In this document: in pieces, positions 1-24,401 of the stretch
Layout of the letters: each line of letters opens with the position of its first letter
How positions within the stretch are numbered: position 1 is the first letter of the stretch
Source: a virus
Taxonomy: Duplodnaviria > Heunggongvirae > Uroviricota > Caudoviricetes
Virus record (IMG/VR): IMGVR_UViG_2526164690_000054
Length of the DNA: 24,401 nt
Direction: 5' to 3' (one strand)
Program-made: the position numbers and the translations under genes
The notes under the pieces: model-generated
Told to the model about the DNA's origin: nothing
Databases searched by the model: none
Seen by the model: only the letters and a program-made list of their open reading frames with translations

Positions 1-447
1 ATGAAAGTTAGAAGCATAGGATTTACAATAAATAACAATAACAAAAATATTAATACCGTTGACGTAATGAATGCTTTTATCAACGCATCAAACAGAGAAC
101 ACAGTCGCACAGACTATACTCGTAAAATTCTCATTTCGGATGTGAATGATTTCTATTATGGATTAGTTGTCACATTCAGAAACCAAAAAAAGAACTGTAA
201 GTCGCAATTTGTTGATGGTAAATTCCAGCTTAAAATTGAAGATCTTCAAGGAAGTGACAAACTTGCTAATTTCAACTTTTTCTTAATTAAAAAATCTAAT
301 CTTTCTGGTCTCTATATGTATCACCACGGTTCATGCAGTCTGAACACTCTCTTTTCTCATTTAGAAACAATAAGTAATGAATTTATCAGAAATCAAAATA
401 AAGAAGAAATAAAAAACTTGGTGATAAACCAAAACAAAAAGAAGTAA
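1..447 (+). CDS. hypothetical protein (AT-rich cargo; possibly 5'-partial at window edge)
   Basis: 148-aa open frame starting at the window edge; Asn/Lys-rich, AT-rich codon usage unlike the adjacent prophage genes; no recognisable catalytic or binding motif. Confidence 0.35.
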   Translation: MKVRSIGFTINNNNKNINTVDVMNAFINASNREHSRTDYTRKILISDVNDFYYGLVVTFRNQKKNCKSQFVDGKFQLKIEDLQGSDKLANFNFFLIKKSNLSGLYMYHHGSCSLNTLFSHLETISNEFIRNQNKEEIKNLVINQNKKK

Positions 448-491
448 CTGCAATAAATAAAAATACAAAGAAAGACTGACTTTTCAGCCTT

Positions 492-770
492 ATGACAAAT
501 AAAAACAACATTCAGAGTGTTTTATGTCAATTCAAAGAGATTAAAAGCACAAGCTTTAAATTTAATTATATAGATTTTAAAGGTGGACCAATGACTGCGC
601 TTGAACAATTTGTTAACACCACCACAATAGATATGAATTTTAATTCTAGCGACAGAACAAAAGTGCAACAACTATCTCAGAATCTTTCAAATATTTATAA
701 TTCTATGAGTGGAGTTGCTAAAGCACAGGTTATTGCAGTAAACCATGCAGGAATAAGAAAAAACCATTGA
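492..770 (+). CDS. hypothetical protein
   Basis: 92-aa ORF on the same strand and in the same AT-rich block as its neighbours; no recognisable motif. Confidence 0.3.
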   Translation: MTNKNNIQSVLCQFKEIKSTSFKFNYIDFKGGPMTALEQFVNTTTIDMNFNSSDRTKVQQLSQNLSNIYNSMSGVAKAQVIAVNHAGIRKNH

Positions 771-1034
771 TTTTATGAACTGCCCTGTTTTTTTTGAAAC
801 ATACGATTTCGATATAATTGCCGATAAAGTCAATGGATTGACAAACGATAATTATACAACAAACCCTGTTTTTGATATGATAAAGGAAGAAATGCTGAAC
901 GGGACGAATAAAAATGCCTTTATATGAATGGCTAATAAATAAAAGATTGAGGTATCAGTACCTTACACTGCTTGCATTCTCGATCCTGGCATTGCTTGCA
1001 CTTTACCTATTGTACAGAAACACACCTAAAGTAA

Positions 1035-1472
1035 GTGTTAACTTTTTTGAGTTTTATCATAAAAACTTACGAGGCTATCTCTTCTCCGGTTTTATTTCCG
1101 TGGGCTCTATTTTTATTGAGCCTGCATACCTTTGTCATAATAAATTTACGCGATAAGGTTTTTGCAACTCAGGAATATAAGGAAATTTATAGCATTGCCA
1201 CTGGTATACCTATTGACAAAATCAATGATAGTGTACTTTATAAACCTTTAGACAATTTATCCTCATTTATTAATACATCAATATTATGTTCTATCACAAC
1301 AGCAATTGCACAATTCACTATTGGACTTTCAACTAATTTATATGCATGCTTATTTTGCGTATGGCTTGCAATACTAACGGTATTTCTTTTATTACATTGC
1401 CTCATCATAATCAGACAAAATATTAAAATTTTATTAAAGCAACAGAGAAAAAAGGGGGGTAATTCCCCCTAA
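1035..1472 (+). CDS. putative membrane protein (possibly frameshifted; overlapping hydrophobic ORF 914-1156 in another frame)
   Basis: 145-aa ORF with several hydrophobic helix-like segments; the upstream ORF 914-1156 in a different frame is also hydrophobic and overlaps it, suggesting one gene split by a frameshift or an alternative start. Confidence 0.35.
   Translation: MLTFLSFIIKTYEAISSPVLFPWALFLLSLHTFVIINLRDKVFATQEYKEIYSIATGIPIDKINDSVLYKPLDNLSSFINTSILCSITTAIAQFTIGLSTNLYACLFCVWLAILTVFLLLHCLIIIRQNIKILLKQQRKKGGNSP
1445..1470 (-). terminator. rho-independent terminator downstream of Q (G6/C5 hairpin plus T-run on minus strand)
   Basis: GGGGGG(1454-1459)-TAATT-CCCCC(1465-1469) hairpin; on the minus strand it is followed by a T-run (A-run 1448-1453 on plus), immediately after the Q stop codon. 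Confidence 0.5.
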
Positions 1473-1474
1473 TA

Positions 1475-1831
1475 TTACAACATTGAAAGCACACCATCCA
1501 GAAAACCAAGAGCTGTTTGCAACTCTTTTCTTATTGTCCCATCAGAACACTTCTGCTTCTTTGCAATAGTTCTTAGTGAGATGCCGATAACAAAATGAGC
1601 AATAACCAACTCATACTCTTCGGGCTTATATTTCCGCAATCGCGCAACACAGCTGTCAATCATGATTCCTTCATCATCATCGCATTGTTGGCGTGTTTTC
1701 TTTCCATGAGGTAGTAAACCTTTAAACCCTGCAGCAACAGGCTGCCAGTCCACACCACTGTTATCTGCTGCAGCCCATGCACCCCAGCGGTCCAATACTT
1801 CATACATATCACGCATCAACTTTCTCCACAA
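1475..1831 (-). CDS. late-gene antitermination protein Q (lambdoid Q family)
   Basis: 118 aa with LDRWGAWAA, GFKGLLP and QCDDDEG motifs typical of E. coli prophage Q antiterminators as I recall them; last gene of the nin-like operon, followed by a terminator. Confidence 0.7.
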   Translation of the reverse strand: MWRKLMRDMYEVLDRWGAWAAADNSGVDWQPVAAGFKGLLPHGKKTRQQCDDDEGIMIDSCVARLRKYKPEEYELVIAHFVIGISLRTIAKKQKCSDGTIRKELQTALGFLDGVLSML

Positions 1832-6542: not shown

Positions 6543-7702
6543 TTGCGCCCCCTTACCTCTGAAGAGTTCAGCGACGAATGAATAAGACGGGCAAGAAATG
6601 CCGCATCGTTAATTCGGTCATACAGACTTACAGCCAGCGATGATTCAGCTTTTTCCAGCATGGGATAAAGCTGCTGCAACCAGACCTGATGAATTGATGA
6701 AACGTAGGAATAGAGAACGCTGGCGTTATGTGCAACGTCGCTCGGTACAGAGGGCTTTGAAAGCTGTTTCTCCATCTGGTTAAAGGCATTGATGTATGCC
6801 TCTTTGAACTGGGCAGCACGTTTGCCAGTGAAGCCCATTGCCAGGAACGCGAAGCCGTCGCGGGTGATGTGGTAGCAAGGAAGTTTGCGAGTACCGCCGT
6901 TGGGCTGGTGTACCAAAATTGATGTCTCCGCAAAATTGCGGGCACAAAACTCTGGAGAACAATCCAAAATGCGGATCTTTTTCAGAACATCGTCATGACG
7001 TTTAGAGAAGAAGTCAGCAACAGCCAAAGAAGATGTAACAGCCTGACCATCAACGATGGCAATTTCAGGTTGAGAGAGGGTTGGGAGAGTAGTCATGGTG
7101 ACAGCCCCGGTAGTCAGTTTTTCAGAAAACTCACCACATGGGACGCCAATCACAGAGGTGGTGAGACGTACAGGGTTGGCGTTACCGGAGACTACCGAAC
7201 CCGGCCCGACCGAAGTCGGCCCTGTACGCCCCACCATAATTTGGGCGTAGCAATGCTCATGACACGAAAAAACCGCATGAGCGCGGTTATGCTCAGTAAT
7301 CAATTTCAGGACGCCAATCCCGGCACCCGCTTTATAAGGTGCCTGAACAGTGTAACGTCCCGGAATGGCAGAATCAATGTGCTGGTGGTCCTTCACACTC
7401 AACAAAATCACGCCTGAATTTCCACAAAGGACTAAAGCACTCATGCGGGTAGTCTTTGCGAAGATAGATAACACGCTGTGTTTCTGGCTCCCAACGAATA
7501 ACATGGACATAAAGCCCTCTTCCGTCACGAAACCAGCGGTTAAGTTCCTGCACAACTCGCCCCCCACAGTCAGGTAAAGTTCTCTGTGGTTACTTACAGC
7601 CAGGTGATTTGGTAATCTGCATTCATGCCGTAACAACAGGTGTTCAGCGACACTGACCACCAGCTGTTGCGACAAACGGTTATTTGCCGTTAAACTGTTC
7701 AT
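6539..7702 (-). CDS. Rha-domain phage regulatory protein with ~200-aa N-terminal extension
   Basis: Residues ~200-300 (VTSSLAVADFFSKRHDDVLKKIRIL...ITRDGFAFLAMGFTGKRAAQFKEAYINAFNQMEKQ) match the Rha domain pattern. Start 7702 is coupled (ATGA) to the CII-like stop; an alternative internal start at 7096 would give a Rha-only protein. Confidence 0.55.
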   Translation of the reverse strand: MNSLTANNRLSQQLVVSVAEHLLLRHECRLPNHLAVSNHRELYLTVGGELCRNLTAGFVTEEGFMSMLFVGSQKHSVLSIFAKTTRMSALVLCGNSGVILLSVKDHQHIDSAIPGRYTVQAPYKAGAGIGVLKLITEHNRAHAVFSCHEHCYAQIMVGRTGPTSVGPGSVVSGNANPVRLTTSVIGVPCGEFSEKLTTGAVTMTTLPTLSQPEIAIVDGQAVTSSLAVADFFSKRHDDVLKKIRILDCSPEFCARNFAETSILVHQPNGGTRKLPCYHITRDGFAFLAMGFTGKRAAQFKEAYINAFNQMEKQLSKPSVPSDVAHNASVLYSYVSSIHQVWLQQLYPMLEKAESSLAVSLYDRINDAAFLARLIHSSLNSSEVRGRK

Positions 7703-16601: not shown

Positions 16602-16627
16602 GGCCTCCCATGCGGAGGTCTTTTGTT
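16602..16627 (+). terminator. hairpin terminator in int-distal intergenic region
   Basis: ggcctcc-catgc-ggaggtc (7-bp stem with one G-U pair) followed by TTTTGTT; the track ATG at 16610 lies inside the loop. Confidence 0.4.
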
Positions 16628-17398
16628 ATAGGAATCAATAAGATGGCGAGAACATTAGTCAACGTCAGCGCTACAATTTTTGCTCTAATGATGATTGTCA
16701 GAGCACTTTTTACTTATATCTACCCTGGAAAACTACCATTTAGCATCGCCATCATTGATTGGCTGATCGTCATTGCTGGTTCTGGTGCAGCAATATCTTC
16801 TATCTTCTGCTTCATCAAAAAACGCTATCCAGACACTGCAGAATTTCTTCCTATGTTCAGCACTGTTTGTTATGTGATTATCCTTATTGGATATGCAATT
16901 TTAAGGTACACACCGGCCTATCAAACATCGCTTTCGATCATGGTTACAGGAATGCTCGTTGGAATGGGATGGTGGATACAATGCATAACGTCCGCTGCTA
17001 ACACGCGCAGGTCCCACACGCTGAACATGATCATTAACACCCGAACAAGCCCGGAGTACCAAAAACAGCTTCGGAACAGCACCAAATTCTATCGGGGCAT
17101 GCGTTATGTACCACAAGAACTATCAGAGTGGCGCTGCAACCCAGACAAAGAAGAATACAAGAATATGAAGGTCCCCGATGAGTACAGGGATGCCATCAAT
17201 GGCCTTTTATATATTCTTAATTATTTCGAGTTTCTTGCGCAGGGTATCAAGTTCAAGGATTTGGATGACGAATTACTGAGGGAGTGCTTCTCCAGCTTCT
17301 TACGCGGGATAGAACGTCGTGGCTTCCACATGATCTTAGAGTCTCAGAAACAGGACCCTGCAGCCTTTGAAGGAATAATCTACCTTTCAAAAAAATGG

Positions 17399-17407
17399 AA
17401 CGGAACA
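17399..17407. repeat. IS10 target-site duplication (left copy, aacggaaca)
   Basis: 9-bp direct repeat identical to 18737-18745, directly abutting the IS10 end. Confidence 0.8.
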
Positions 17408-18736
17408 CTGATGAATCCCCTAATGATTTTGGTAAAAATCATTAAGTTAAGGTGGATACACATCTTGTCATATGATCAAATGGTTTCGCGAAAAATCAAT
17501 AATCAGACAACAAGATGTGCGAACTCGATATTTTACACGACTCTCTTTACCAATTCTGCCCCGAATTACACTTAAAACGACTCAACAGCTTAACGTTGGC
17601 TTGCCACGCATTACTTGACTGTAAAACTCTCACTCTTACCGAACTTGGCCGTAACCTGCCAACCAAAGCGAGAACAAAACATAACATCAAACGAATCGAC
17701 CGATTGTTAGGTAATCGTCACCTCCACAAAGAGCGACTCGCTGTATACCGTTGGCATGCTAGCTTTATCTGTTCGGGCAATACGATGCCCATTGTACTTG
17801 TTGACTGGTCTGATATTCGTGAGCAAAAACGACTTATGGTATTGCGAGCTTCAGTCGCACTACACGGTCGTTCTGTTACTCTTTATGAGAAAGCGTTCCC
17901 GCTTTCAGAGCAATGTTCAAAGAAAGCTCATGACCAATTTCTAGCCGACCTTGCGAGCATTCTACCGAGTAACACCACACCGCTCATTGTCAGTGATGCT
18001 GGCTTTAAAGTGCCATGGTATAAATCCGTTGAGAAGCTGGGTTGGTACTGGTTAAGTCGAGTAAGAGGAAAAGTACAATATGCAGACCTAGGAGCGGAAA
18101 ACTGGAAACCTATCAGCAACTTACATGATATGTCATCTAGTCACTCAAAGACTTTAGGCTATAAGAGGCTGACTAAAAGCAATCCAATCTCATGCCAAAT
18201 TCTATTGTATAAATCTCGCTCTAAAGGCCGAAAAAATCAGCGCTCGACACGGACTCATTGTCACCACCCGTCACCTAAAATCTACTCAGCGTCGGCAAAG
18301 GAGCCATGGGTTCTAGCAACTAACTTACCTGTTGAAATTCGAACACCCAAACAACTTGTTAATATCTATTCGAAGCGAATGCAGATTGAAGAAACCTTCC
18401 GAGACTTGAAAAGTCCTGCCTACGGACTAGGCCTACGCCATAGCCGAACGAGCAGCTCAGAGCGTTTTGATATCATGCTGCTAATCGCCCTGATGCTTCA
18501 ACTAACATGTTGGCTTGCGGGCGTTCATGCTCAGAAACAAGGTTGGGACAAGCACTTCCAGGCTAACACAGTCAGAAATCGAAACGTACTCTCAACAGTT
18601 CGCTTAGGCATGGAAGTTTTGCGGCATTCTGGCTACACAATAACAAGGGAAGACTTACTCGTGGCTGCAACCCTACTAGCTCAAAATTTATTCACACATG
18701 GTTACGCTTTGGGGAAATTATGAGGGGATCTCTCAG
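17408..18736 (+). mobile_element. IS10 insertion sequence (complete, 1329 bp)
   Basis: Outside end CTGATGAATCCCCTAATGATTTTGGTAAAAATCATTAAG at 17408; inside end ...GGGGATCTCTCAG ending at 18736; encodes the 402-aa IS10 transposase; flanked by a 9-bp duplication. Confidence 0.9.
17515..18723 (+). CDS. IS10 transposase (IS4 family)
   Basis: 402-aa ORF within the IS10 ends; sequence recognised as the IS10/Tn10 transposase. Confidence 0.9.
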   Translation: MCELDILHDSLYQFCPELHLKRLNSLTLACHALLDCKTLTLTELGRNLPTKARTKHNIKRIDRLLGNRHLHKERLAVYRWHASFICSGNTMPIVLVDWSDIREQKRLMVLRASVALHGRSVTLYEKAFPLSEQCSKKAHDQFLADLASILPSNTTPLIVSDAGFKVPWYKSVEKLGWYWLSRVRGKVQYADLGAENWKPISNLHDMSSSHSKTLGYKRLTKSNPISCQILLYKSRSKGRKNQRSTRTHCHHPSPKIYSASAKEPWVLATNLPVEIRTPKQLVNIYSKRMQIEETFRDLKSPAYGLGLRHSRTSSSERFDIMLLIALMLQLTCWLAGVHAQKQGWDKHFQANTVRNRNVLSTVRLGMEVLRHSGYTITREDLLVAATLLAQNLFTHGYALGKL

Positions 18737-18998: not shown

Positions 18999-19023
18999 CG
19001 GGTTCAACTCCCGCCAGCTCCAC
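18999..19023 (+). other. fragment resembling the 3' end of tmRNA (probable att core remnant)
   Basis: cgggttcaactcccgccagctccac matches the T-arm/acceptor 3' end of E. coli tmRNA as recalled; upstream sequence does not continue as tmRNA and no CCA follows. Confidence 0.5.
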
Positions 19024-19058
19024 TTTTTAGTTGTTTGAAGTTCAATGAAGTCTACTAA

Positions 19059-19090: not shown

Positions 19091-19187
19091 ACGTCTATTG
19101 TCGTCCAGTGAGAATTGCTGAGAACTACGAGTTATGGCACCCTGAATGGGACCCACTAAGAAGGGTCCAAAAACCGAGGGTCCCAAA

Positions 19188-20408
19188 ATGGCAAAAATCG
19201 CTAAGAAGCTCACTGACACTGAAATCAAAAGCACCAAGCCAGCCGATAAAGAAATCAACTTGTTTGACGGTGATGGTCTGATTCTACGAATCGCTCCTTT
19301 GGCGAAAGGAGGCAAGAAAAATTGGTATTTCAGGTATGCAGTACCCGTGAGCAAGAAAAGAACCAAAATGAGCCTTGGGACATATCCTCACCTTACCCTT
19401 GCAAGAGCCAGAGCCTTACGTGATGAATATCTCTCCTTTCTGGCAAATGGTGTTGATCCCCAAATCCATAACAACGATAAGGCGAAGGCATTAAAGAGTG
19501 CTACTGAGCACACTCTCCAAGCCGTAGCGCGGAAATGGTTAGATGAGAAGGTAAAGACATCAGGTATCTCACAAGACCATGCAGCAGACATCTGGCGCAG
19601 CTTAGAGAGAAATGTCTTTCCCGGTCTGGGTAATGTCCCTATCCGACCTAAGCTCTTAAAACAACACCTTGATCCTATTGAGCAACGAGGCGTATTGGAA
19701 ACTCTACGCCGTATCATTTCACGTCTGAATGAAATCTTCCGGTGGGCAGCTACTGAAGAACTTATTGAGTTCAACCCGGCTGACAACCTTGGTCAAAGAT
19801 TCAGTAAACCAAAAAAGCAAAATATGCCTGCCCTTCCCCCAAGCGAATTGCCAAGGTTTATGGAATCTTTGACGAATGCGTCAATCCGGTTGGAAACACG
19901 TATGCTAATTGAATGGCAATTGTTGACATGGGTTCGTCCGGGTGAAGCCGTTCGCGCAAGGTGGTCTGATATTGATACAACCAACAGCATTTGGAACATT
20001 CCTGCTGATTTCATGAAAATGAAAAAGCTTCACAAAGTTCCTTTGAGTAAAGAAGCTTTGCGCATCCTTGAATTAATGAAATCAATAAGTGGGCATAGAG
20101 AATGGGTTTTCCCCAGCATAAAAGCGCCTCTTAATCATATGCATGAACAAACAGCCAACGCAGCTATCATCCGAATGGGGTTCGGAGGCGAGCTTGTAGC
20201 TCACGGTATGCGTTCTATTGCACGAACAGCGGCAGAGGAGTCTGGTAAATTCAGAGCTGAAGTTCTTGAGGCAGCGCTTGCCCACTCGAAAAAAGATGAA
20301 ATTATCGCAGCATACAATCGTGCAGAATATCTGATAGAGCGACAGAGTTTGATGCAATGGTGGAGTGATTACGTTCAAGCTCAAAGATCAAATGCTCTGG
20401 TAGCCTAA
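19188..20408 (+). CDS. P4-type tyrosine integrase (IntA-like)
   Basis: N-terminus AKKLTDTEIKSTKPADKEINLFDGDGLILRI is typical of P4-family integrases; C-terminal catalytic region (HGMRSIARTAA...AHSK...AYNRAEY); ATG 19188 preceded by GAGGG; adjacent to the tmRNA-like att fragment. Confidence 0.85.
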   Translation: MAKIAKKLTDTEIKSTKPADKEINLFDGDGLILRIAPLAKGGKKNWYFRYAVPVSKKRTKMSLGTYPHLTLARARALRDEYLSFLANGVDPQIHNNDKAKALKSATEHTLQAVARKWLDEKVKTSGISQDHAADIWRSLERNVFPGLGNVPIRPKLLKQHLDPIEQRGVLETLRRIISRLNEIFRWAATEELIEFNPADNLGQRFSKPKKQNMPALPPSELPRFMESLTNASIRLETRMLIEWQLLTWVRPGEAVRARWSDIDTTNSIWNIPADFMKMKKLHKVPLSKEALRILELMKSISGHREWVFPSIKAPLNHMHEQTANAAIIRMGFGGELVAHGMRSIARTAAEESGKFRAEVLEAALAHSKKDEIIAAYNRAEYLIERQSLMQWWSDYVQAQRSNALVA

Positions 20409-20932
20409 GTATCAGAATAGCTAATATAATCCTGAAGGTAAAGAAAATGGAAACCCTATTCAAAGTTTTTGAAAAATTTAGTTCCAGACCACTTTTTTTA
20501 TTTTTTTCGGACTCTCACTTTGTGAATTTTTTCAGAAACAATCTGTTCTGATGAATCCATCAGCAGATAACATCGCGAAATTATTCGCAGCCATGATATT
20601 AGTTGTTTTTTTACTTGGGGATTTGAATGGCTAATCTTCAAGTTCAATGTAAACCTTGAACCTCATGATCAAGGCGATATTGGACCAACAATTGGAACGG
20701 CTACTTTAGCTGTATACTTAGTTTATGCCTTTCACTTTCTCAGTGAAAATCCTGAAGCATTAAATTTAAAGTTATTAACTAACTCTGGCTTTATATACAG
20801 CACAACTCTATTATTATTCTCATTAGAATGCATGAAGCTTAGAAGACTTAAACAAAAATAAACAACATCATTGTGATGATAAATATAAAATAGGCATGGC
20901 GAAAAAAAATCACCACGCCTAAAATATAATAA

Positions 20933-22699
20933 TTATGGTAGCATCATTGATACATAATCCACACCAATCCTTGAGCTATACTGAGACGCTATAGCCTGAT
21001 ATCTTTCTGCATAACCAGTTCTCAGTTGAGATTTAAGTTTGAGTCGGACAGGAACATTTTGCACGTTGCCATCCATATTACTTAAAAACACGGCAGAAAT
21101 AATATTTTTTTCTTCGCCATCAACTGTTGTTCCATGATTCAACACCACCATATAATCAACAACAGGAAGCGTTTTATCCCCTTCGAAAATAGAGAGATAT
21201 TTTCTTTGATTTTTATGCATTACATATATATATTTCGAATGTTCAGCAAATGGCAATGCTTTACTCTGACTGGCGTTAAAAAGCTCCAGAACTTTAATGA
21301 GCCTGTGCGGACTTAATCTTACATGGTGAGGGTCGTTACCCTGAGTAGGAACCAAATCACATGCCGCAGATACACATAAATACCATTTGTTCGACTCTGT
21401 ATCAAAGAAAATAGTGCCAGTAGAAATATGACCATCTTCAAAATTCTTTGAAGACAAATTCATATTTAAAGCATGATACATTTCGTGATAAGTATCATTA
21501 TTTGATGGCAGATCCATTTTTGAAGAGCAATATTGGAGCAATGCAGCAACTCCGCTGTTAGCGTATTCATTTGAATAGCTATCAAAAACACTTTTGATAA
21601 ATTCATCCAGCGTATTATTATTTTTAAGTCTTTGATAAAGCTCTTCTGATAAATTACCAAATACAAAGTCAATATTTCTACATCTAATATCAGGCGAGTC
21701 TGATTTTAATATCTCATTTAACCACGCAGCTTGACCGTAATGATCGTTAGCCAAATGATTTACAAAAGATAAAGCCTCAGCTTCGATTGCATTCTGAATT
21801 TCAGATTTTATTAACTGATAATAAGATGGTTTCCATTCAATGAGAGAATCATTGAGAGTTTGCCAAATCCTATCTCCATCGTTTTCATGATCATCTTGAA
21901 CCTTATGAAATAGGGAGACAAAGATATTACCACATTGAATCCATTTTACTCCGCTTTCATCACCCCGAATGACATTGCCAGATGTGTTGCTAGAAATAAT
22001 TGCATTTCTAGACACAGCATATTCTGCAATCATTTTTGCAATGAAGTTTTTATCCTTTTGATCCTCCAACACAGCATCATCATGTATTAATCTTTTAATT
22101 CTTCTACAAGGCTTACTGTCTTTAATATAGGCTATTATTTCATCTCTTGTGAGAGCTTTATTACCATTATCATTTAAGTTCGGTAATACAACGTCTTCCC
22201 AATAACTTTGGACATCTTCATTATCGTAGTCAATGATCAAGCTGTTGATATCCAGAGCACCTTTGAGAGTCGATGATATCTGCATCCAAACCGTTTCTAA
22301 ATTCTCTCTAGTATATATTACAATCATATTTAAATGATCGGAGTCTTTCAAATCTTGTAATAGTTTAAGTGTTTTATCAGGTGCATTATTATCAAGATGA
22401 TAATCTACAATAATAAGATCTGATTTTCTAATCCGATCCACATCGAAATTAACAGAACCATTGTCAACATCACAAATCATATTTTTAGATTGAAAAAAGC
22501 TCTCAAGAGTAGCGGCTCGTTTAGATGAGTCAATTTTGTTGTAGTCTAAATCAACTTCGTTATTCAACGCCCTGATTGATTCAGAATACGTCAGAAAATC
22601 GTCATCAATCATGACAACGGAACGAATTGCATTTTCGCAGAAAGTTTTCTGGACAAGAGAATTATAATTTGCCACTGTCATATTAGAACTCCACTCCAT
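20933..22699 (-). CDS. receiver-like (CheY-type) N-terminal domain fused to large uncharacterised C-terminal domain
   Basis: 588 aa; N-terminal ~150 aa carries VVMIDDD (acidic pair), DLIIVDYHL (candidate phospho-Asp) and MIVIYT (conserved Thr) with receiver-like spacing; remaining ~430 aa have no recognisable motif; start overlaps the kinase gene by 17 nt. Confidence 0.6.
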   Translation of the reverse strand: MEWSSNMTVANYNSLVQKTFCENAIRSVVMIDDDFLTYSESIRALNNEVDLDYNKIDSSKRAATLESFFQSKNMICDVDNGSVNFDVDRIRKSDLIIVDYHLDNNAPDKTLKLLQDLKDSDHLNMIVIYTRENLETVWMQISSTLKGALDINSLIIDYDNEDVQSYWEDVVLPNLNDNGNKALTRDEIIAYIKDSKPCRRIKRLIHDDAVLEDQKDKNFIAKMIAEYAVSRNAIISSNTSGNVIRGDESGVKWIQCGNIFVSLFHKVQDDHENDGDRIWQTLNDSLIEWKPSYYQLIKSEIQNAIEAEALSFVNHLANDHYGQAAWLNEILKSDSPDIRCRNIDFVFGNLSEELYQRLKNNNTLDEFIKSVFDSYSNEYANSGVAALLQYCSSKMDLPSNNDTYHEMYHALNMNLSSKNFEDGHISTGTIFFDTESNKWYLCVSAACDLVPTQGNDPHHVRLSPHRLIKVLELFNASQSKALPFAEHSKYIYVMHKNQRKYLSIFEGDKTLPVVDYMVVLNHGTTVDGEEKNIISAVFLSNMDGNVQNVPVRLKLKSQLRTGYAERYQAIASQYSSRIGVDYVSMMLP

Positions 22700-24401
22700 T
22701 GAACTGGATCACAAAATTAGCGCCATCTTTTATTAAATAGTTATCGCCTTCATCAGGTTCTGAATACCATATTTTATGATGTGCAACAGCAAGGTTTTCT
22801 CGACATAGATACAGACCTACCCCATGTCCATTTGCTCTTTTGCTATAAAATAGTTCAAATAGTCGCGGGATATCATCGGTATCAATTGCCGGACCAGAAT
22901 TTGCTATGATAACCAAAGAATTCACAAAACCAATCTTTATGAGCCTATTATTTGACAGACTGACCCAATACATTGCATTGTTGATAATATTAGTAAAAAC
23001 AGGATAGATCCTTAATGGTATATCTGTTATTGCGATTTGCTTAAACTCTTCACTAAATTCAATAGTTATTCGTTGCCGTTCGAAACGCTCCCCAAAGAAC
23101 TTCAGGACATAATCCATGATATTTTTTCCAGTTATTCTCTGCCTGGATTGATAACCTGATATTTTCAAAGGTGATAAGAAACGTATTTGTTGAGTAAGCG
23201 ATCTGTGAGCATTTAACGCCAATGAAAAACCAGGGTGTTCTTTTACAGAAGTAGGAAGAGAGTTTAGTCCTCTGGTTACCATAGAATCCATTTCTTCAAG
23301 TTCATGAGATATTATCTCAACACTAATACCTAACTGTGCAAGCGCGTTTAAACTTTTAGCTTTTTCTTCAAAATATGAGCGTTCTTCTTCAGATAATGAG
23401 AATGCTGAATCTAAGTTTATACCTTCAAATAATCTATCGAGACCTTTTATTATTGATTGATATTTGAAAGTTAGGGTATCAACTGACTCAACATATAAAC
23501 TATCGAGCAAATTAAACACATTTTCAATTTGTGAATCATTATCTATTGAATCAACAACTGATATAGTTTTAGCATAATAATCACTTCGATCAACCTTTAT
23601 TTCATCGGCCCATTTTTTTAAAAGAGAATGTATCTTCTCCTCTATCGTGTTATTAAACTTAGTTAGTTTAGAATTAATAATACCTTGATTTTTTTCAAGG
23701 TGATTTTTCGCTGACAATGAAGGCTCAAGTTTATTTAATTCAGAATCAAGTTTATTAATTGCTAACTTCATTTGTAGAATATACGCAGAGAACTCATTAA
23801 ATTTATCTCTGTAGTCTCTATATTTCTCTTCATACATTCCAAGTTTTGGAGGTTTGATAGGCGTTTTAATTTCACTGCGCAACGCATCTAAGTTTGTAAG
23901 ATCACTGTCTATAATTTTAAGATAGTTTAAATCTAACGAACCATCAGTTTTATCAAGCTTAGTTTTCAGCCTTTTAACAGCCTCCAAGGAAGCATCAAGA
24001 ACTGGTGTCTGATTCTTCAAAGCTTCTGAAAAACTTTTTTGTGTTGATTTTCGAGCTTGTTGTTGAGCAGATTTTCTTAACTCTTTTTCACGCTTAACTT
24101 GTTCTAAAAGCTCTTTACGGTCATCAGAACGTGAACCAAAAAATCTATCAGCAAGTTCAGTTAACAAATTAGATATAATAGTTTTCAGTTCTCTTGCAGC
24201 CTGGTTTCTTATGAATCCCTCTCTCCCCGACTTATCTTTCAGCTCTTTATTACTGGATTGAGTAATTCCAATATAACCAAAAATCCTTCTATTAGACCAA
24301 TAATATCGCCCTGCATTCCATGAACGTCTTTCTTCTATCTGGAAGAAATCATTATCTACTCGACCATAAGGTAATACTCTCAAGCTATCCCTAAAAATCA
24401 T
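22683..24401 (-). CDS. histidine-kinase-type protein (HisKA-like H-box plus HATPase_c), 5'-partial at window edge
   Basis: Frame open to the window end; Lys/Glu-rich coiled-coil-like middle; H-box-like GISVEIISHELEEM, N-box NIINNAMYW, G1 IIANSGPAID, G2 GHGVGLYLC in canonical order and spacing. Confidence 0.65.
   Translation of the reverse strand: MIFRDSLRVLPYGRVDNDFFQIEERRSWNAGRYYWSNRRIFGYIGITQSSNKELKDKSGREGFIRNQAARELKTIISNLLTELADRFFGSRSDDRKELLEQVKREKELRKSAQQQARKSTQKSFSEALKNQTPVLDASLEAVKRLKTKLDKTDGSLDLNYLKIIDSDLTNLDALRSEIKTPIKPPKLGMYEEKYRDYRDKFNEFSAYILQMKLAINKLDSELNKLEPSLSAKNHLEKNQGIINSKLTKFNNTIEEKIHSLLKKWADEIKVDRSDYYAKTISVVDSIDNDSQIENVFNLLDSLYVESVDTLTFKYQSIIKGLDRLFEGINLDSAFSLSEEERSYFEEKAKSLNALAQLGISVEIISHELEEMDSMVTRGLNSLPTSVKEHPGFSLALNAHRSLTQQIRFLSPLKISGYQSRQRITGKNIMDYVLKFFGERFERQRITIEFSEEFKQIAITDIPLRIYPVFTNIINNAMYWVSLSNNRLIKIGFVNSLVIIANSGPAIDTDDIPRLFELFYSKRANGHGVGLYLCRENLAVAHHKIWYSEPDEGDNYLIKDGANFVIQFNGVEF

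Follow-up and report, generated by a model that had tools for sequence, protein, structure and literature searches.

Near the end of the virus record IMGVR_UViG_2526164690_000054 (Caudoviricetes; 24,401 nucleotides (nt), the whole of which is referred to below as the window), two adjoining genes on the minus strand encode a histidine kinase (22683-24401) and a receiver-effector protein (20933-22681). Our comparison with related sequences indicates that this pair is a degraded and most likely inert remnant (probability about 0.8) of a known, functionally uncharacterised three-gene module. In its intact form the module encodes a C5 DNA methylase, a kinase of 972-994 amino acids (aa) with two GHKL ATPase domains and a receiver-effector protein of 582-644 aa. 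An earlier note on this DNA, made from the sequence alone, had read the pair as a two-component-derived and possibly anti-phage signalling module of the Detocs type with a novel effector. The two-component origin was confirmed by the analyses below and the Detocs assignment was not; the window locus is a decayed copy of a known family and qualifies neither as a new defence system nor as a variant of Detocs.

The kinase gene is truncated at its 5' end

The kinase gene of the window encodes 572 aa (RefSeq WP_000577251.1, 'ATP-binding protein'), which correspond to aa 417-988 of an intact protein of 988 aa and comprise a coiled-coil region, the DHp domain with its H-box, and the HATPase_c catalytic domain. 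A motif search located all four motifs of the histidine-kinase core on the minus strand where they had first been noticed, namely the H-box ISHELEEM (23289-23312), the N box NIINNAMYW (22965-22991), G1 ANSGPAID (22881-22904) and G2 GHGVGLYLC (22803-22829). Profile searches against Pfam supported this identification, with HATPase_c (PF02518; E = 1.9e-11, 44.8 bits, cutoff 26.4) and HEF_HK (PF19191; E = 1.2e-5, 26.1 bits, cutoff 24.1) both exceeding their gathering thresholds, and the same region matched the Thermotoga kinase ThkA in the PDB (E = 7e-7 with the single sequence and 7.5e-12 with a profile). The phospho-acceptor His366 of the window protein is His782 of the full-length kinase. In an alignment of 18 kinases, His782 and Glu783 of the H-box and the N and G boxes were invariant, as were the N-terminal Bergerat motifs (E32/N36, DxGxG and GxxGxG).

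Homologues with 99% identity in Klebsiella, Serratia and Salmonella are 988 aa long and carry an N-terminal GHKL domain (HATPase_c_3, PF13589) in addition to HEF_HK and HATPase_c. This head is missing from the window kinase, and since such close relatives possess it, its absence represents a secondary loss rather than membership of a different family. The earlier note had placed the 5' end of the gene, together with its sensor and perhaps a gene for a stand-alone receiver, beyond the window edge. We compared the window with its closest chromosome, that of Escherichia coli O26:H11 strain 11368. The kinase frame does continue past the edge, but only for 122 nt (41 codons), from window position 24401 (codon 417 of the intact kinase) to codon 376 of 988, where it meets the terminal inverted repeat of the insertion sequence (IS) IS3, which supplies the stop codon. 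Homology to the intact island at locus L002 ends at the same codon, directly against the IS3 inverted repeat. Farther out lie an IS3 pseudogene, a chromosomal ygaQ remnant, glaH, lhgO and gabDTP; neither the sensor half of the kinase nor a receiver-only gene is present there, and the sensor half is gone from the genome. These comparisons show that, in the E. coli lineage to which the window belongs, an IS3-associated event removed the methylase gene, the first 375 kinase codons (and with them the entire N-terminal ATPase) and the remainder of the island. It left behind the C-terminal 613 codons of the kinase, annotated from an internal Met as a 572-aa protein, and an intact receiver-effector gene.

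The truncated allele is common in E. coli. It was found in 586 of 5,426 complete genomes, and chromosomes of O26, O103 and related strains among them are 100% identical to the window region. The identical kinase/IS3 junction occurs in 483 of these genomes, whereas the methylase and the kinase N-terminus of the intact island had no match in any of the 5,426 at megablast sensitivity. Accordingly, the E. coli allele is a single, widely inherited truncation. An allele carried by roughly 10% of complete E. coli genomes and named in RefSeq as an ordinary 572-aa 'ATP-binding protein' is thus a truncated form.

Because both the methylase and the N-terminal ATPase of the kinase have been lost, the window pair is unlikely to be a working system. 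If restriction requires the complete kinase, a joint loss of the methylase and the front of the kinase is of a kind that one would expect the cell to tolerate. Several observations weigh against the view that the remnant is inert. In about 560 complete genomes neither of the two open reading frames (ORFs) is interrupted, and identity is at least 99%. The kinase remnant retains its entire DHp and catalytic domains, so that some residual kinase activity might persist, and a Shine-Dalgarno-like AGGA lies 3 nt 5' of the internal Met417. In addition, of the changes that separate the receiver gene from the intact L002 allele, 12 are synonymous and only 2 non-synonymous (ratio of non-synonymous to synonymous rates, dN/dS, 0.04). 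The truncated kinase and the intact receiver-effector could accordingly still work in E. coli as an orphan pair without a sensor, either as a constitutive or differently regulated toxin or defence module or as an addiction remnant, and such a function could keep the ORFs open. Outward promoter-like matches inside IS3 would be in line with this, although they are weak and agree with the consensus at only 9 of 12 positions. We consider an active orphan pair improbable on the following grounds. Recent common descent would explain the high identity and the junction shared by 483 genomes just as well as selection would, and most of the synonymous divergence is probably older than the truncation; the copies being nearly clonal, the arguments for function are weak. 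Moreover, the kinase remnant differs from the intact allele by 6 non-synonymous and 3 synonymous changes, and one complete genome (H36, NZ_CP071711.1) has an IS3-family insertion inside the pair. Many receiver copies in the databases are also partial: the E. coli clusters P0129, P0379 and P0127 include a 453-aa fragment with 1,605 members and a 234-aa fragment with 457. These partial clusters suggest that the gene ends at a contig break in many draft genomes, perhaps where another IS has entered the remnant, as in NZ_CP071711.1.

The receiver-effector gene is intact

The second gene of the pair (20933-22681, minus strand) encodes a protein of 582 aa (WP_000214985.1), named 'response regulator receiver domain' in the RefSeq annotation of O26:H11 11368. 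The frame is open as far as 22699, and 20933-22699 would give 588 aa to the first ATG; the start at 22681 is the one used by RefSeq and by 91% of the homologues. With this conserved start, the two genes lie on the same strand with a spacer of 1 nt, and a 17-nt overlap results only from the upstream ATG. The two minus-strand ORFs described earlier are thus both present, but they abut rather than overlap.

The N-terminal part of the protein is a receiver domain, as had been supposed, with a strong match to Response_reg_2 (PF19192; E = 3.7e-31 in Pfam). The domain covers aa 1-284 (21830-22681, minus strand), and its acidic pair D26/D27, the phospho-acceptor D93, T124 and K260 were invariant in 57 receivers. 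A helical insertion (aa 145-226) separates alpha4 from beta5, which ends in the invariant K260. Because this insertion precedes beta5, the receiver fold reaches approximately aa 283, and the region of about 430 aa that had been described as lacking a recognisable domain shrinks to about 300 aa; for this remainder, the lack of any domain match holds. Together with the kinase, the protein shows the hallmarks of a two-component system: the phospho-acceptor His of a DHp domain, an ATP-binding domain, and the acidic pocket, Thr and Lys of a receiver. Profiles and alignments both support a two-component-derived pair of kinase and receiver-effector.

The remainder is the effector region (aa 285-582; 20936-21829, minus strand). 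A confident AlphaFold2 model of the receiver-effector (predicted local distance difference test score, 85.6) shows a helical bundle at aa 287-410, followed by a beta-rich domain with a C-terminal helix at aa 411-569. The conserved motifs are SEIQN (293-297), N406, TGT (421-423), SxACDxVPxQ (438-447), QLR (552-554) and RxGxD (571-575). The effector had no sequence or profile match in Pfam, NCBIfam, PADLOC or the PDB; a profile of the whole receiver-effector gave 0 matches among PDB sequences, and a Foldseek search of the effector model against the PDB returned nothing below E = 0.12.

We also examined how the effector is distributed. A search of 1.84 billion representative sequences with an effector profile matched 658 clusters (50% identity). 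The best 150 of these 658 matches share the same architecture, and the full-length ones among them all have the effector behind an N-terminal region of about 280 aa, which indicates that, among these matches, the effector and the Response_reg_2 receiver form one fixed unit. A search with the profile of the receiver domain alone for other fused effectors yielded 16 matches, all of them fragments.

The intact three-gene module and its proposed mechanism

The pair itself is not new. Bellieny-Rabelo, Pretorius and Moleleki (2021, Genome Biol Evol; PMC8011034) identified it in silico as the HEF_HK/Response_reg_2 pair and established the families PF19191 and PF19192, so that it has been published and represented in Pfam from that year on. 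In that study, kinase and receiver genes were adjacent in 91.6% of cases over 644 regions from 628 strains, HATPase_c_3 was present in 83% of the kinases, and an origin from the paraMORC ATPases of Iyer et al. (2008) was proposed (PMC8011034). C5 methylases were often found upstream and Vsr downstream, and restriction-modification (R-M) domains were over-represented nearby (PMC8011034).

We found the intact module in Enterobacterales, Acinetobacter, Acidobacteria and one metagenome. The intact kinase consists of an N-terminal MORC/MutL/Hsp90-like HATPase_c_3 ATPase, a conserved middle region, a coiled coil, the HEF_HK DHp domain and HATPase_c. On the enterobacterial island L002 the order is smpB, ssrA, a P4-type integrase gene and an ORF of 138 aa, and then, on the opposite strand, the genes of the methylase (402 aa), the kinase (988 aa) and the receiver-effector (582 aa); a relaxase gene and more integrase genes lie further on. 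The methylase and kinase genes overlap by 20 nt (L002) or 4 nt, and the kinase and receiver genes of intact loci by 1-8 nt; these tight overlaps suggest co-translation.

The triad occurs in five contexts: the transfer-messenger RNA (tmRNA) island of Enterobacterales, a second island in Salmonella, the cargo of a Tn7-like element in Acinetobacter, a conjugative element in Acidobacteria, and a position between housekeeping genes on a metagenomic contig. A C5 methylase is present in 5/5 of the intact or near-intact contexts examined, and no linked upstream methylase is found with the window copy. In Acinetobacter (L007:9777-11104) the methylase gene converges on the kinase-receiver pair and follows the gene of a 71-aa HTH_3 protein, which resembles the controller (C) proteins of classical R-M systems. 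Beyond the triad itself, no gene is common to the five contexts, and they contain no recognisable nuclease and no stand-alone receiver. Neighbours of the triad on the second Salmonella island and the Acidobacteria element include AbiEii, a protein with HNH_2 and ScoMcrA-SBD domains, the YjhX toxin, HipA and ArdC, which are typical cargo of mobile elements and defence loci. On these two elements the module is thus accompanied by abortive infection (Abi), type IV restriction and toxin-antitoxin genes. The methylase of the intact relatives matches the PADLOC models MTase_II, DruM and DrmMII.

Annotation obscures part of this picture. Outside E. coli, many genomes give the kinase a length of exactly 572 aa, with its start placed at the internal Met of the truncated E. 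coli allele (P0052, P0058, P0059, P0062-64, P0068, P0070 and P0071). In Salmonella enterica GCA_009435335.1 (L005:6735-9719), the full frame of 994 codons is open and the annotated product is nevertheless 572 aa. A natural short isoform was therefore rejected for this locus; the short call is apparently an artefact of annotation and may have been taken over from the truncated E. coli model. Such short calls hide the MORC-like half of the kinase from surveys that rely on annotation.

For the intact module, the following mechanism can tentatively be proposed from gene content and conserved residues. The methylase would mark host DNA, and the N-terminal GHKL ATPase of the kinase would detect unmarked (foreign) DNA in a DNA- or nucleotide-dependent manner. 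Sensing would lead to autophosphorylation on His782 by the C-terminal catalytic domain, and the phosphate would then pass from His782 to Asp93 of the receiver. Phosphorylation might free the C-terminal effector to exert a toxic activity, possibly by way of a MazF/CcdB-like barrel, and the outcome would be restriction or abortive infection. This methylation-gated phosphorelay is our leading explanation, although we hold it to be somewhat less than an even chance. With slightly more reserve still, the intact family may form an immune or addiction module of a new class, in which a MORC-like head reads DNA methylation and a His-to-Asp relay activates a novel or MazF/CcdB-like toxin. If this is true, the module would be an R-M system wired through a phosphorelay, and the E. 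coli remnant, a naturally 'disarmed' allele, would show that toxicity requires the kinase head.

Some findings weigh against such a mechanism. No PD-(D/E)xK, HNH or other nuclease motif was seen in the receiver-effector, and neither it nor the kinase showed a recognisable nuclease motif or fold in Pfam, PDB profile or Foldseek searches. Our literature search found no experimental study of the HEF_HK/Response_reg_2 family, and we infer its defence or restriction role from context only. The authors of the 2021 study speculated, without experiments, on a regulatory link to R-M systems (PMC8011034). This idea is the main alternative, although we regard it as unlikely: the intact family would be a two-component system that regulates the expression or activity of linked methylase or R-M genes, and the C-terminal 300 aa of the receiver protein would be a novel output domain binding DNA, a ligand or a protein. 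The presence of R-M domains near the pair agrees with it. However, no helix-turn-helix or other DNA-binding domain was detected in Pfam, NCBIfam or fold searches, and because the methylase is the only consistently linked gene, there is no separate restriction gene to regulate. A kinase of about 990 aa with two ATPase domains and a MORC-like head also seems heavy machinery for the control of one methylase, and regulation fits less well with a module that travels on mobile elements in the company of Abi, type IV restriction and toxin-antitoxin genes.

Island setting and neighbouring features

The kinase and receiver genes lie in a block with a GC content of 0.32-0.37, compared with approximately 0.44-0.56 in the adjoining prophage, in agreement with the AT-rich island described earlier. 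In O26:H11 11368 the order is lambdoid prophage, prophage integrase gene, DUF4760 gene, P4-type integrase gene, 138-aa ORF, receiver gene and kinase gene. The P4-type tyrosine integrase of the island (19146-20408, plus strand) matches Arm-DNA-bind_3 (2.2e-22), Phage_int_M (1.4e-18) and Phage_integrase (1.8e-19) in Pfam, and the same integrase gene adjoins ssrA-smpB in the intact island L002.

A sequence resembling the 3' end of tmRNA (GGGTTCAACTCCCGCCAGCTCCA; 19000-19027, plus strand) forms the attachment (att) junction at the start of the island, as determined by comparison with the ssrA/island junction of L002. Homology of the window to L002 begins at 19000, and the L002 island starts directly after the CCA end of the tmRNA. 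The segment 19000-19027 is a variant T-arm and acceptor stem, and there is no tmRNA gene in the window. To the left of the junction stand the lambdoid prophage and IS10 in tandem. The segment 19000-19027 marks a tandem array in which the lambdoid prophage and the P4-type island both occupy the ssrA att site. The integrase domains and the tmRNA-like copy together support a mobile island at a tmRNA site.

Between the integrase and receiver genes lies a small hydrophobic ORF (20447-20872, plus strand), which encodes 138 aa when intact (WP_000448925.1) and is frameshifted in the window, with a stop after 34 aa. It occupies this position in every enterobacterial island copy and had no match in Pfam or PADLOC. 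A terminator-like hairpin (20891-20921, minus strand) with a 12-bp stem followed by a T-run lies 12 nt 3' of the receiver-effector stop codon and probably marks the end of the operon.

Several features elsewhere in the window were also recorded. An IS10-type insertion spans 17407-18736, with a 402-aa DDE_Tnp_1 transposase at 17515-18723 and the antisense RNA of IS10, RNA-OUT, at 17453-17522 (98.8 bits). This insertion is missing from O26:H11 11368, which is otherwise 99.8% identical in the region. It has entered the 3' end of the DUF4760 gene (16610-17575, plus strand; 321 aa, E = 8e-16), itself located between the prophage integrase and the island. The DUF4760 gene looks like moron-type cargo whose 3' end has been affected by IS10. 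In the prophage regulatory region (7154-7342, minus strand), a C4 antisense RNA (82 bits) stands beside the Hfq-binding small RNA isrK (59 bits). A second AT-rich block with a GC content of 0.31-0.32 occupies window positions 1-1500 and has plus-strand ORFs at 1-447, 492-770 and 914-1156.

Comparison with known systems

We compared the effector with toxins of the MazF/Kid/CcdB type. An hhalign comparison of the effector alignment with hand-typed MazF, Kid, ChpBK and CcdB sequences gave a probability below 1%. The effector showed no sequence or profile similarity to these toxins and no Foldseek match, MazF catalytic residues are not evident, and, in contrast to them, it is a domain within a 582-aa protein with no antitoxin gene. 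Two further systems were considered and rejected: the methylation-associated defence system MADS likewise includes a kinase and a methylase, but its operon of 8 genes has other components, and the Vibrio cholerae WASA paper uses paraMORC only for an unrelated GHKL-Shedu fusion.

PADLOC-DB 2.0, which includes Detocs models, gave no kinase or receiver model match for the window proteins, for the full-length kinase or for the island neighbours. Like Detocs, the family combines a soluble histidine kinase with a receiver fused to an output that does not bind DNA, at a mobile or defence locus, with the phospho-accepting His and Asp conserved. Detection of Detocs requires dtcA (a tetratricopeptide repeat (TPR) kinase), dtcB (a stand-alone receiver) and dtcC (a receiver with a PNP or other effector) together, and the effectors are swappable (Rousset et al., bioRxiv 10.1101/2023.01.24.525353). 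It had been proposed that the window pair is a working phosphorelay of this type with a novel effector, and with its sensor or DtcB-like buffer just outside the window. The kinase core and the receiver are indeed real, the location is a mobile island with an integrase, and Detocs demonstrates that two-component architectures with swappable effectors can be immune systems. Nevertheless, we consider this reading very improbable. No DtcB is present in the window, in O26:H11 11368 or in the five intact or near-intact loci examined, where the conserved third gene is a DNA methylase; upstream of the window kinase there is IS3 and then chromosomal genes. The kinase head of the intact relatives is a HATPase_c_3 GHKL ATPase, whereas that of DtcA is a TPR domain. 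Likewise, DtcC carries PNP or another known killer, whereas the present effector matches no Pfam or PADLOC family, so that the architecture is only analogous, and the Response_reg_2 receiver and its effector stay together as one unit in the best 150 of 658 matches, unlike the exchangeable effectors of Detocs.

The closest relatives are found in the HEF_HK/Response_reg_2 family. Both Pfam signatures exceed their thresholds in the window proteins, the genes adjoin each other in the order typical of the family, both proteins are soluble and lack transmembrane segments, E. coli members were included in the 2021 study, and intact relatives with 99% identity carry HATPase_c_3 and an upstream C5 methylase. 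The window copy departs from the family in lacking the HATPase_c_3 half and the methylase, owing to IS3. The 2021 study left the C-terminal 300 aa of the receiver protein unanalysed and made no mention that the widespread E. coli allele is truncated (PMC8011034).

A more distant relationship connects the intact family with the paraMORC GHKL ATPases (Iyer, Abhiman and Aravind 2008; PMC2292703), with which it shares an N-terminal head bearing Bergerat motifs, a cytosine methylase as neighbour and an association with mobile elements. ParaMORC1-5 have S5 domains and helicase or nuclease partners or fusions (PMC2292703), whereas the GHKL head of the intact family is fused to a full histidine-kinase core and partnered with a receiver; none of this head is left in the window. 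Carried on islands and on Tn7-like and conjugative elements, and with an effector that has no known domain, the parent triad is a reasonable candidate for a methylation-gated phosphorelay defence module.

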